64,000 nt of DNA from an uncultured delta proteobacterium (GTDB lineage: Bacteria > Myxococcota_A > UBA9160 > SMWR01), in assembly GCA_963832165.1 (NCBI GenBank), contig CAWHTE010000001.1, positions 192,001 to 256,000 of the forward strand, read 5' to 3'. Every line of letters starts with the position of its first letter. The stretch's first letter is position 1. Below are positions 38,126-45,219 of the stretch, piece by piece. The notes below the pieces were generated by a model, which was given only the letters and a program-made list of their open reading frames with translations, made no database searches and was not told where the DNA came from. Made by a program: the position numbers and the translations under genes.

Positions 38126-38139
38126 CCCGTTCTCACGCC

Positions 38140-38148
38140 GCCTAACGG
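38140..38148 (-). repeat. attC core remnant (R')
   Basis: GCCTAACGG between convergent genes. Confidence 0.5.
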
Positions 38149-41726: not shown

Positions 41727-42269
41727 AGCGCCCTCGGGCATGAGCGCTGTATGCATGAAATCGGTGCCGCCAGGGTCATGGCCGAGCTGGAAGAGCAGCG
41801 CCGTGACTTGGCCACGGTGGTGTGTCTGGTGATTGAAAAGGTGCGCGACCACGTGCCAGAACGGCACCACCATGCTCTGGCCGGTGGAACGAGCATACGA
41901 AAGGTCGCTCTCGAGAATGTCGGGGGTAAGCTCAGCCACCCACGATTGGATCGCAGCATCGGTTTCGCGACGCTGCGCGGCCAGCTCCGGGAAGCTCTCG
42001 TATAGGACTTGTGCGAGCGACTGGAACTCGAAGACCAGTGGGGTCTTCTCGAGGGAGCGAAACCCATGAGGATGCTTGCTGATCCGACCCAGCCATATGC
42101 GATCCGTCAGGAGGATGTGGTTGAGCGTGCCGTGGATGGACCGAAAGAATGCACCCATGTCTCGGTTCCGCTCCTCCTCCGACAGGGACGATGCCAGGTC
42201 ATAGAGTCGGCCGTTGAACCAGGCGTTGTACTGTGCGAATCGGTAGAACTGCTTGAGATGGAGATTCAT
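41721..42269 (-). CDS. DinB/YfiT-family metal-binding protein
   Basis: YNAWFN, SIHGTLNHI, HLFNHQTHHRGQ. Confidence 0.92.
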   Translation of the reverse strand: MNLHLKQFYRFAQYNAWFNGRLYDLASSLSEEERNRDMGAFFRSIHGTLNHILLTDRIWLGRISKHPHGFRSLEKTPLVFEFQSLAQVLYESFPELAAQRRETDAAIQSWVAELTPDILESDLSYARSTGQSMVVPFWHVVAHLFNHQTHHRGQVTALLFQLGHDPGGTDFMHTALMPEGAA

Positions 42270-42299
42270 GCTCGATCCCTGGCGCCGCCTTGTATCTAC

Positions 42300-42490
42300 C
42301 CCGTGGCCGTGCCGACGATCCGACCTAGCATGATCACGCTTCCGGGGAGACCGTTGCTGCCTGAAGCCACGAGCTTGTCCGTTAGATGGGTCCCCCGCCC
42401 TCTTCGCCCATGCCGTGGAGGATCCGAGGCCCGAGAGCCTGCATCCACAAGGTCGGTAGGCGACGGTACAGGGTCGGGGAACCCGGAAGC
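42300..42490 (+). ncRNA. predicted bridge RNA (5' hairpin, target-binding loop, donor-binding loop); ends approximate
   Basis: Two stem/internal-loop/hairpin modules carrying guides TTGCTGCCT/CCGTTAG (target) and GGAGGATC/ACAAG (donor). Confidence 0.85.
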
Positions 42491-42510
42491 AGCGTAACAC
42501 GGGGGGACGC

Positions 42511-43497
42511 ATGCGTGGAGCCTGCTATGTGGGAGTCGATGTCAGCGCGGACGAGATCACGGTGGCGATCGAGGGGCGTGCCGAGCGGGTCACACTGGCC
42601 AACGATATCGAGGGCCACGAGCGACTGATTCGGTTGCTGACCCGCCGCGGAAAGGCCGCGCGCGTGTGCCTGGAGGCGACGGGCATCTACCACCTCGACT
42701 TGGCATTAGCGCTGCATCGAGCGCGAGCGATCGACGTGATGGTGGTGAACCCCTCGGCGGCGCGGGACTTCGGACGCGCGCTGCTGCAGCGCTCGAAGAC
42801 GGATCGCGTGGACGCAGGGGTGCTGCTGGAGTTTGCGCAGCGAATGCCTTTCGCATCGTGGCAGCCGCCCGCGCCCGAGATCCTCGATCTACGGGCGATC
42901 GTCCGTCGGATCGGCGCCCTCACCGTCACGCGAACCCAGGAGCGCAATCGACTTCATGCGGCGGGCCGCTGTGCGGAGCTCACCGAAGCGATCGCCTGGG
43001 ACATCGAAGCGCACCTCGAGCATCTCGCGCAGAGCCTGGAGCGTTTGCAGCAGCAGGCGCTCGAGCTCGTGCAAGCGCACCCCGAGCTCGCGCAACGCTT
43101 CGAGCGGCTCATTTCGGTCCGCGGCATCGCGACCACCAGCGCACTGCGCATTCTCGCCGAGCTCGCCGTGCTGCCCGCCGACATGACCCCTCGTCAGTGG
43201 GTCGCTCACGCGGGACTCGACCCGCGTGCGCACGACTCGGGAACCTCGCTGCACAAGCCCGCCCGGATCAGCAAGAAGGGAAACAGTCACCTGCGAGCGG
43301 CGCTCTACATGCCGGCGATGGTCGCAGCCCGTGAGGAGCCCAGTGTGAGGACCTTCTATCAGAAGCGCCTCGCAGGAGGACTCAAGCCCATCCAAGCCCT
43401 GGTCGCCGTAGAGCGAAAGCTCCTGCATAGCATCCACGGAATGTGGGCGAGCAATAGCAACTTCGACGGCGAGAAATTCTGCGCGATGAGCGCTTGA
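42511..43497 (+). CDS. IS110-family DEDD transposase/recombinase
   Basis: VGVDVS, CLEATG, KTDRVDA, AGLDP..DSG serine motif, ISKKGN..LR.ALY. Confidence 0.95.
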   Translation: MRGACYVGVDVSADEITVAIEGRAERVTLANDIEGHERLIRLLTRRGKAARVCLEATGIYHLDLALALHRARAIDVMVVNPSAARDFGRALLQRSKTDRVDAGVLLEFAQRMPFASWQPPAPEILDLRAIVRRIGALTVTRTQERNRLHAAGRCAELTEAIAWDIEAHLEHLAQSLERLQQQALELVQAHPELAQRFERLISVRGIATTSALRILAELAVLPADMTPRQWVAHAGLDPRAHDSGTSLHKPARISKKGNSHLRAALYMPAMVAAREEPSVRTFYQKRLAGGLKPIQALVAVERKLLHSIHGMWASNSNFDGEKFCAMSA

Positions 43498-43512
43498 CAG
43501 CGCAGAGAGGAT

Positions 43513-43535
43513 CTAACGGATCGCGGTTCAGCTCT
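43513..43535 (-). repeat. remainder of the attC site split by IS110
   Basis: Minus strand GCTGAAC-CGCGATCC-GTTAG. Confidence 0.75.
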
Positions 43536-43615
43536 GCCGCCCCGCGTACCTCCGAGTATCAATCCAGCGGCCGCCGCGCGTCAATCACCGACCGGCGGCC
43601 GCCGACATGCCCCGA

Positions 43616-43789
43616 TCAAGGTGCGTCGGGGTCAGATAGAGCCCTGTGGCGCGCGGTGCGGCGGATGTGCGATTCGCCGAACGGCTCGAGCCGGTAGGCG
43701 ATCCCCTTCGCGCGCAGATAGGCCTCGAGCTTGCCGGTGAAGTACGAAGCCGTGGTGCCGTAGATGGTGAGCGCGGTGGCGCCCGTCAT
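43616..43789 (-). pseudogene. N-terminal fragment of a glutathione S-transferase
   Basis: IYG...SYFTGKLEAYLRAKGI then stop after 57 aa at the island edge. Confidence 0.7.
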
Positions 43790-43791
43790 CG

Positions 43792-45219
43792 CTAGCGCGC
43801 GAGCGCCGCGAGCAGCTTCTCCCAAACGCCGCCGAAGTCGCCGTTGCTCATCACCACGGCGACGTCACCCGGCTGTGCAGTGGCGGCGATGTGCGCGACG
43901 ATCGCGTCGACGTCGGGCAGCGCCACGGCGGGTACGCCGCGCGCGGTGATGTCTGCGGCGAGCTGCTCCGCGGAGAAGCGCTCGGTGACCTCGCCCGTGG
44001 CGCTGTAGATCGGCGTGTCGGGCACGATCCGGATCACCACCGTGCCGGCCCGGTCGAACGACTGCGCATACTGCTGCTGGAACACCTTGCGCCGGCTCGT
44101 GTTGGTGCGCGGCTCGAAGATCGCCACCACGCGCCGGCCCGGATAGCGCGCGCGCACGGCCTCGAGCGTGGCGGACACGGCGGTCGGATGATGCGCGAAG
44201 TCGTCGAGCACGGTCACGCCGCGTGCTTCGCCGCGCACCTCGAGCCGGCGGCGCACGCCGCGGAATTGCGCGAGCGCCGCTGCGGCATCGGCGAGCGGTA
44301 CGCCGAGCTCGACCACGGCCCCGAGACCCGCGACGGCGTTCTCGATGTTGTGCGCGCCGTAGAGCGGAACGAGCGTGGAGACCGCGGCGCCGCCGGGCCC
44401 GCGCAGGACGAAACGCGTGCCGCGCTCGTCCGATGAAAGATCCGTGGCGGCGTAATCGAAATCGCCGCCGCTGCCCACGCCGTATCCGACCACGCGACAC
44501 GGCGCACCGCGCACCACGTCGCGCACGCCCTCGTGCGCGAGCGCGGCCACGATCGTTCCCTCGCGCGGCATCTGCCGCACGAGCGTGCGGAACGCGTCCT
44601 TCACGTGCTCGAGGTCGCGGTAGATGTCGGCGTGGTCGAACTCCACCGACGTCACCACGAGCGTGCGCGGGTGGTAGTGCAGGAACTTCGGCGTCTTGTC
44701 GAAGAACGCGGTGTCGTATTCGTCGCCCTCGACCACGAAGTGCGAGCCTGCGCCCTCGCGGAAGCTGCCGTCGAAGTCGAGCGCGTGTCCGCCCACGAGC
44801 AGCGACGGGTCGCGGCCGCAGCGCAGCAGGAGCGACGCGAGCAGGCTCGTCGTGGTGGTCTTGCCGTGCGTACCGGAGACCACCACCGAGTGCTTGCCCG
44901 CGATCGCGAGCTCGTAGAGCGCGTCGGAGAACGAGCGGTAGGGCAGGCCCTCGTCGATGGCTGCGCGCGCCTCGGGGTTGTCGGGGCGCACGGCATTGCC
45001 GATCACCACGAGGTCGGGGTCGGCCGCGTGCACGTGCTCGGCGCGGAAGCCGTCGTTCACGCGGATGCCCCAGGTCTCGAGCAGCGTGCTCATGGGCGGG
45101 TAGAGGTGATCGTCGGAGCCCGTCACGCGCAGGCCGCGCGCGTGCAGCAGGCCCGCGAGGCTGCCCATGCCCGTTCCACCGATCGCTACGAAGTGGACGC
45201 TGCGCGGAGTCTCACTCAC
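43792..45219 (-). CDS. mpl: murein peptide ligase
   Basis: IGGTGMGSLA, YPPMST, GTHGKTTT, EGDEYDTAFFDK, DDFAHHPTA, EPRTNT, MSNG. Confidence 0.93.
   Translation of the reverse strand: MSETPRSVHFVAIGGTGMGSLAGLLHARGLRVTGSDDHLYPPMSTLLETWGIRVNDGFRAEHVHAADPDLVVIGNAVRPDNPEARAAIDEGLPYRSFSDALYELAIAGKHSVVVSGTHGKTTTTSLLASLLLRCGRDPSLLVGGHALDFDGSFREGAGSHFVVEGDEYDTAFFDKTPKFLHYHPRTLVVTSVEFDHADIYRDLEHVKDAFRTLVRQMPREGTIVAALAHEGVRDVVRGAPCRVVGYGVGSGGDFDYAATDLSSDERGTRFVLRGPGGAAVSTLVPLYGAHNIENAVAGLGAVVELGVPLADAAAALAQFRGVRRRLEVRGEARGVTVLDDFAHHPTAVSATLEAVRARYPGRRVVAIFEPRTNTSRRKVFQQQYAQSFDRAGTVVIRIVPDTPIYSATGEVTERFSAEQLAADITARGVPAVALPDVDAIVAHIAATAQPGDVAVVMSNGDFGGVWEKLLAALAR

Follow-up and report, generated by a model that had tools for sequence, protein, structure and literature searches.

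The recombinase gene at 42511-43497 of the window, by which we mean the whole 64-kb stretch of DNA that was analysed, is preceded by a conserved non-coding stretch of 220 nt that is otherwise unannotated. The locus raises the question whether this stretch encodes a bridge RNA, and whether two dinucleotides directly behind its guides, AU and GU, act as handshake bases that pair with DNA once strands have been exchanged. The window segment 42289-43514 is very probably an intact IS621-like IS110 insertion sequence, with a bridge RNA in its left end of which the handshakes would pull the reaction towards insertion; the non-coding stretch and an adjoining REP-like insertion hotspot are thereby explained. 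The anatomy of the element, its pairing potential, the covariation of guides and flanks and the existence of a second identical copy were established directly. Features lie on the plus strand unless stated otherwise.

The recombinase and the ends of the element

The gene encodes an IS110-family recombinase of 328 amino acids, as indicated by Pfam (PF01548, 2.9e-18; PF02371, 9.8e-19; both above their cut-offs), structure matches and catalytic residues. In a structural database the best match is the ISCro4 bridge recombinase of the same family (PDB 9t56, E 3.6e-46, residues 6-323), for which the comparison concerns the protein level only, and the IS621 transposase of E. coli was found with E 3.1e-45 (chain 8wt6_A). 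Residues D10, E55, D98, D101 and S243 align with the D/E/D/D/S of the IS621 chain and are invariant in 16 relatives. As in IS621, the protein has a DEDD RuvC-like domain at its N-terminus, followed towards the C-terminus by a Tnp domain that carries the catalytic Ser; the two proteins are distant, with roughly 35-40% identity as estimated by eye from the alignment. The closest relative in a genome (L011, CAVQTC010000003.1) has 90% identity over residues 7-318; tblastn gave only a short in-frame segment of its recombinase gene, which may be frameshifted, and its bridge RNA is intact (182 bits).

The element starts behind a left CT core (42289-42290) with the right donor arm RD, TGTAT (42291-42295), which is complementary to one of the guides described below and overlaps a -10-like hexamer, TATCTA (42293-42298). 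The left target flank LT occupies 42282-42288 (positions 1-7), with GC at positions 6-7 (42287-42288), and its last three bases CGC also flank the second copy. At the other side the left donor arm LD (43506-43512, positions 1-7, with AT at 43511-43512 as positions 6-7) is followed by the right CT core (43513-43514) and the right target flank RT, AACGG plus ATCG (43515-43523), which is common to both copies and provides the first bases of a REP-like repeat reaching about 43600. The second copy is 100% identical and is located on another contig of the same genome with different flanks; the common sequence extends only from 42286 to 43523. Since the flank bases specified by the guides are common to both, the two copies alone cannot place the ends. 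The boundaries were obtained from a 56%-identical relative present in five copies in one genome, of which the sequences diverge exactly before CT+TGTAC at the left and after ...GTAT+CT at the right, and by homology the cores of the window are therefore 42289-90 and 43513-14. The first-pass annotation had placed the junctions correctly, in agreement with these divergence points.

The boundaries thus placed have CT cores at both sides and no inverted repeats, as expected for IS621-like elements. Among the relatives CT or AT precedes TGTA at the left end, whereas the right core is CT in every right junction that was located. Most rows have CT as the left core; the five exceptions with AT are L014, L060, L084, L092 and L021, and in the first four of these the left target guide likewise reads AU at the core places. 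In the subclade with AU at the core places of this guide, the left core is AT in the same four elements but CT in L074 and L076, with CT as the right core; such a pattern would be left behind if target and donor had different cores and the resulting 2-nt heteroduplex were resolved.

The ends could instead be drawn at an ATCTA direct repeat, which is present at both sides (42294-98 and 43511-15); the two copies in the genome, with their common flank bases out to 42286 and 43523, do not fix the ends by themselves. With ends at this repeat, ACAAG-GT would pair with target instead of donor DNA and the handshake reading would fail. Against this placement, the five copies of the relative part exactly before CT+TGTAC, the bases left of CT+TGTA match the element's own left target guide across 74 relatives, the unoccupied copies of the repeat in the same genome read ...GC-CT-AACGGATCG without TGTAT in between, and RD is the same as the RD of IS621 described in PMC11208158. 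Ends at ATCTA are considered exceedingly improbable. An initial boundary model that used this direct repeat, with the element starting at 42299, was ruled out by the unoccupied repeat copies and the five-copy relative.

The element is flanked by a gene of the DinB family and one for a Mur ligase, each encoded on the minus strand. Within 42267-42290, the left core is found 19 nt upstream of the DinB-family start codon (42269-42267, minus strand), and the insertion may have separated this gene from its promoter. The right side adjoins the REP-like repeat, of which at least four more copies are present in the genome; the family begins with CT-AACGGATCG, followed by ...TCAGCTG..., and in the unoccupied copies GC precedes the CT. 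This repeat, at 43513-43600 of the window, is also found at L003-L006, L121, L122 and L124. Both copies of the insertion sequence are located at the first bases of a REP-like repeat, and several unoccupied repeat copies are left in the genome.

Joining of the two ends in a computed circular junction brings a -35-like TTGACA of the right end (43494-43499, computed from the window) to 17 nt from the -10-like TATCTA of the left end, a spacing that at the level of sequence resembles a sigma-70 promoter. In the relatives TTGAC occurs at a constant distance from the core. A -35 in the right end and a -10 in the left end are likewise described for IS621 in the relevant part of PMC11208158, and by analogy the RNA would be transcribed from the promoter rebuilt in the circle.

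The bridge RNA and its guides

The bridge RNA scaffold, comprising a target-binding loop, a donor-binding loop and enclosing stems, extends from 42337 to 42490 (covariance model 184.6 bits, E 2e-37) and is located upstream of the recombinase gene (42511-43497). A search of Rfam over 41800-44000 with E up to 1 returned no family apart from a chance miRNA match, and a minimum free energy fold of the single sequence 42299-42480 was uninformative (z = -0.88). RNAalifold misdrew the donor loop, so the structure was drawn by hand in an IS621-like form and then tested. In 12 relatives and 211 columns, 95.6% of the cells are paired and 11 pairs are changed on both sides; neither value was reached in any of 500 shuffles, and slid controls gave 20-54% paired cells. 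The RNA is a conserved structure with two internal loops, the target-binding and the donor-binding loop.

A covariance model built from the hand-drawn structure found the RNA in 93 places across 100 sources, which comprise the window together with 19 loci from genomes and 80 from metagenomes; the latter are 80 of the 546 relatives detected with a query made from the 9 closest proteins. Guides were parsed from the covariance-model alignment. To place the left junctions, the final five bases of the right donor guide were used as their reverse complement, and the right junctions were placed with the left donor guide plus T. For elements whose right end lay beyond the contig, the left donor guide supplied donor positions 6-7. 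After removal of 19 rows, 74 of the 93 were kept as non-redundant. The removed rows are three exact duplicates (L021, L063, L114), four that lacked a left junction in range (L046, L069, L085, L086), six cut by contig ends (L054, L088, L089, L095, L104, L107) and six deep relatives of 35-48% identity with differently built left ends (L023, L024, L026, L027, L029, L030). Distinct flanks among the relatives are distinct insertion events.

Four guides were assigned. In the target-binding loop, the left target guide (LTG, 42354-42362) has the same sense as LT plus core (target positions 1-9) and the right target guide (RTG, CCGUUAG, 42379-42385) would pair with core plus RT (43513-43519, positions 8-14). 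In the donor-binding loop, the left donor guide (LDG, 42417-42424) runs in the sense of LD positions 1-7 plus the core C, with 7 of 8 bases identical to 43506-43513, and the right donor guide (RDG, 42443-42451), consisting of AU, a 2-nt bulge and ACAAG, would pair with core plus RD (42289-42295) at positions 8-12 and, across the bulge, 13-14.

The sequences of relatives strongly support this guide assignment, which rests on covariation of RTG with RT, LTG with LT, LDG with LD and RDG with RD. Positions 3-9 of the LTG equal the actual flank by Watson-Crick in 57-69 of the 74 relatives. Between RTG and RT, 276 of 305 cells at positions 10-14 are Watson-Crick (61 elements), as compared to 193.6 after shuffling, a count not reached in any of 2000 shuffles; pairing is found in 59 of 61 elements at position 12, in 57 at position 13 and in 41 at position 14. 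The native RTG, with 7 nt, is fully paired in both genome copies. At position 5 of the LDG, G/U changes together with G/T in the right end, and the 5' AU or GU of the RDG covaries with RD position 14 (T/C). Complementarity of LTG and RTG to the flanks and of LDG and RDG to the ends follows the scheme of bottom and top strands, as judged position by position and against shuffled controls in 74 and 61 elements.

Guide layout, junctions and handshake positions, as proposed in the first-pass annotation, all fit the scheme given for IS621 in those sections of PMC11208158 that deal with its RNA. IS621 likewise has a left-end RNA with two pseudo-symmetric loops, CT cores, the same RD TGTAT (its donor positions 10-14), and an RDG (A157-G165) split by a 2-nt bulge in the same layout (PMC11208158). 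There are also differences. The RTG pairs with positions 8-14 here, as compared to 8-11 in wild-type IS621 according to the corresponding passages of PMC11208158 and 10.64898/2026.08.31.748434, and RDG position 12 forms a canonical A-T pair here instead of the G.T described for IS621. Unlike in IS621, the right target arm is AACGG, the host is GC-rich, and about 25 extra conserved bases at the 3' side form stems that enclose the donor loop. Site choice is also RNA-guided in the IS1111-group seekRNA elements of the same IS110 superfamily, of which the guide RNA is located downstream of the recombinase gene, while it is upstream here.

In several deep relatives (L023, L024 with L035 and L037, L026 and L027; 38-48% protein identity) the left ends, located some 340-375 nt before the recombinase gene, contain two modules resembling a target loop. 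The RTG of the distal module matches the actual right flank at 7 of 7 bases and is followed by AU (GU in L024), and the proximal module, which adjoins the donor loop, matches the flank at only 5-6 of 7 bases and is followed by other dinucleotides. The two modules could represent a duplicated target-binding loop, a feature of which we know no earlier description.

Contigs from all four RNA libraries considered, belonging to four studies, cover 42317-42610 with 95-100% likeness and have no differences at the four handshake positions. The runs were found via this conserved part and the data are contigs for which DNA carry-over is possible, so that they provide a weak hint that the bridge RNA region is expressed. 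Their coverage does not reach the junctions, and neither a circle nor an empty-site joint is represented in them, an absence that carries no weight in either direction. In three studies, three contigs stop at 42339-42347 with no loose ends; these stops were not taken to mark the RNA 5' end, as the sequence upstream varies between relatives. Among public sequencing runs, none contained more than 0.20 of the sampled words.

Handshake dinucleotides in the window and in relatives

In the target loop, AU (42386-42387) would pair with donor positions 7 and 6 (43512 and 43511) after exchange of the top strands, and in the donor loop the G of GU (42452-42453) would pair with target C7 (42288) and its U wobble with target G6 (42287). 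The proposal that the guides extend into the recombinant junctions agrees with the letters: 42379-42387 (CCGTTAGAT) and 43511-43519 (ATCTAACGG) are exact reverse complements, and ACAAGGT (42447-42453) is complementary to GCCTTGT (42287-42293) except for one wobble of RNA U with DNA G. The 9-mer has two matches in the 64-kb window, at these two places only, with 0.11 expected and no shuffle out of 100 reaching two. Among 20,000 dinucleotide-shuffled versions of the 220-nt left end, the 9-mer was counted 13 times and the 7-mer, with U or C allowed at its last place, 241 times; both came up together once. From the base composition of the left end, the chance that both dinucleotides pair beside guides that are already matched comes to about 0.005, with 0.030 for the AU and 0.161 for G followed by C or U. 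The extra dinucleotides provide weak evidence when considered in isolation, and the handshake reading consequently depends on context and on relatives. By count, GU pairs equally well with the element's own donor AT (G.T wobble and U-A) and with target GC (G-C and U.G wobble), and it discriminates between donor and target only by which position is Watson-Crick; the net gain hence comes from the AU of the target loop.

The same letters are found in IS621, which according to the parts of PMC11208158 and PMC13626964 that treat the handshake has AU and GU, AT at donor positions 6-7 and GC at target positions 6-7; its handshake bases A81/U82 and G166/U167 have the same positions and letters as AU and GU here.

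Among the 74 relatives, the first handshake base of the target loop is A throughout and has donor T7 as its partner in 74 of 74, and the second base pairs with donor A6 in 67. The dinucleotide reads AU in 68 elements, and 73 of 74 have AT at donor positions 6-7. With both partners nearly invariant, these places are conserved but leave hardly any variation in which covariation could be seen. The donor-loop dinucleotide is more varied, with GU in 33, AC in 18, GC in 8, CC in 4, GA and AG in 3 each, CU and CG in 2 each and UU in 1, as are target positions 6-7 (GC 43, GT 13, AC 7, CC 4, TT, AG and GG 2 each, GA 1). Its first base is Watson-Crick with target position 7 in 58 of 74, as compared to 36.9 after shuffling (0 of 5000 shuffles), and compensatory cases occur, with C facing G7 in L020, L100 and L115 and U facing A7 in L094. 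The second base is paired or wobbles with position 6 in 62 of 74 versus 57.5 shuffled (127 of 5000), and is Watson-Crick in 33 versus 28.7 (476 of 5000), so that from the alignment it appears weakly tied to target position 6. Pairing with the non-cognate DNA after exchange is accordingly found for position 7 in 74 of 74 target loops and 58 of 74 donor loops.

Counted over the four places, the change in Watson-Crick pairs upon exchange is +2 in 52 of the 74 elements, +3 in 7, +4 in 4, +1 in 7 and 0 in 4; a gain of at least one is thus found in 70 and the change is never negative. A is the first donor-loop handshake base in 21 of 74, and this base pairs with the element's own donor T7. Seven elements (L009, L011, L042, L014, L048, L060, L061) have AC at sites with C7, and in these the first handshake base would go from a match with the element's own donor T7 before exchange to a mismatch once strands are exchanged. 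Three of them (L009, L011 and L042, 77-90% protein identity) belong to the four closest relatives first found and carry AC instead of GU. In IS621 the equivalent state, G166A, lowered recombination in the experiments reported in PMC11208158.

A tree of the 700 nt downstream of the RNA contains 12 changes of 'T7' and 8 of 'A'. A tree-aware test of the association of A with T7, using 11 independent pairs, gave about four changes in the same direction, none opposite and seven unchanged (p about 0.125). This test is underpowered, and with this p value the association is not shown independently of relatedness. The first-pass annotation had also seen in the handshake an independent support for the guide assignment; this claim had to be weakened, as the target-loop dinucleotide and donor positions 6-7 hardly vary and the covariation of the guides is far firmer.

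Direction of the reaction and choice of site

The order of events and the directional effect set out here would be those of IS621. LTG and RTG in the target-binding loop would read the insertion site, with its GC-rich left arm, CT core and AACGG right arm, and LDG and RDG in the donor-binding loop would read the joined ends of the element itself. With AU directly 3' of the RTG and GU directly 3' of the RDG, AU would face target GC and GU would face donor AT before exchange, giving one U-A pair and wobbles. The top strands would be cut behind the CT cores and swapped, upon which AU would become fully paired with donor AT, G would pair with target C7 and U.G would form at position 6. The change from one Watson-Crick pair before to three after exchange would pull the reaction towards insertion and hold back excision. 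By direct analogy with wild-type IS621, the RNA would favour insertion, because the handshakes AU and GU, target GC and donor AT are identical; an insertion bias has been measured for IS621 with these letters (PMC11208158, PMC13626964). In its discussion of this combination, PMC13626964 likewise counts one Watson-Crick pair before and three after exchange, states that this drives insertion and disfavours excision, and describes the pattern as conserved in IS110 elements. Mutations and cryo-EM reported in PMC11208158 show a complex that is locked when the pairing is cognate, with exchange being promoted by pairing to non-cognate DNA, and the directional role is restated in the pertinent part of a preprint (10.64898/2026.08.31.748434).

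The matches might also arise as a by-product, with AU as part of a fixed scaffold (…AGAUGGG…), AT as part of a fixed right end, their pairing unused, and GU present by chance. For the target loop the data agree with such an origin, as AU and AT occur in 68 and 73 of 74 elements without compensatory change and the six variants (AA, AC, AG) just lose a pair; this match could be due to conservation of scaffold and end rather than to selected pairing. The chance of 0.16 for G followed by C or U at the donor-loop site and the non-significant tree-aware test point the same way. A by-product does not explain that the first donor-loop base tracks target position 7 (58 of 74 versus 36.9 shuffled, 0 of 5000), including C:G and U:A combinations, nor that, among the 63 relatives with an LTG specifying C7, 8 of the 16 elements with donor-loop A use T7 sites as compared to 2 of 47 others (Fisher 1.1e-4). 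For IS621, which has identical letters, mutational and structural work shows that such pairing is formed and has an effect (the respective parts of PMC11208158 and PMC13626964). We therefore regard a by-product as improbable and retain the handshake that favours insertion.

The T7 usage in A-bearing elements suggests that the handshake base co-determines the choice of site, which is a mildly new signal. That the donor-loop base acts as a second, independent reader of target position 7, shifting site choice even against the LTG, is a rather doubtful extension that we put forward tentatively. If true, GU in the window and AC in its closest sisters would be two alleles tuned to ...GC|CT and ...GT|CT sites, and the net gain of two in 52 of 74 elements would suggest selection for a set level, not a maximum, of insertion bias. 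An origin of the T7 at left junctions from the donor via a shifted bottom-strand cut was rejected, as it predicts C at donor position 7, and T is present in all right junctions found.

The element is a known kind of insertion sequence, of which the identical handshake letters already have published behaviour; it adds little that is new and raises no new question. It shows that the handshake arrangement measured in E. coli IS621 is found again, with no letter changed, in a soil lineage that is distant and GC-rich. It also provides 74 natural relatives of which the junctions are defined, and for the donor loop these obey the published rule by which position 7 is read by the handshake base of the other loop. 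Designers of bridge RNAs can make some use of the natural RTG of 7 nt and of the GU/AC variants.

In the element's own genome, the pattern GCNGCCTAACGG is found at 7 sites as compared to 15 for the reversed control, so that the bare motif is not enriched, and only 3 of the 7 sites are at the REP-like repeat. An unoccupied 12-mer, GCCGC-CT-AACGG, at 38137-38148, ~4 kb upstream of the element and outside the repeat family, fits the guides.
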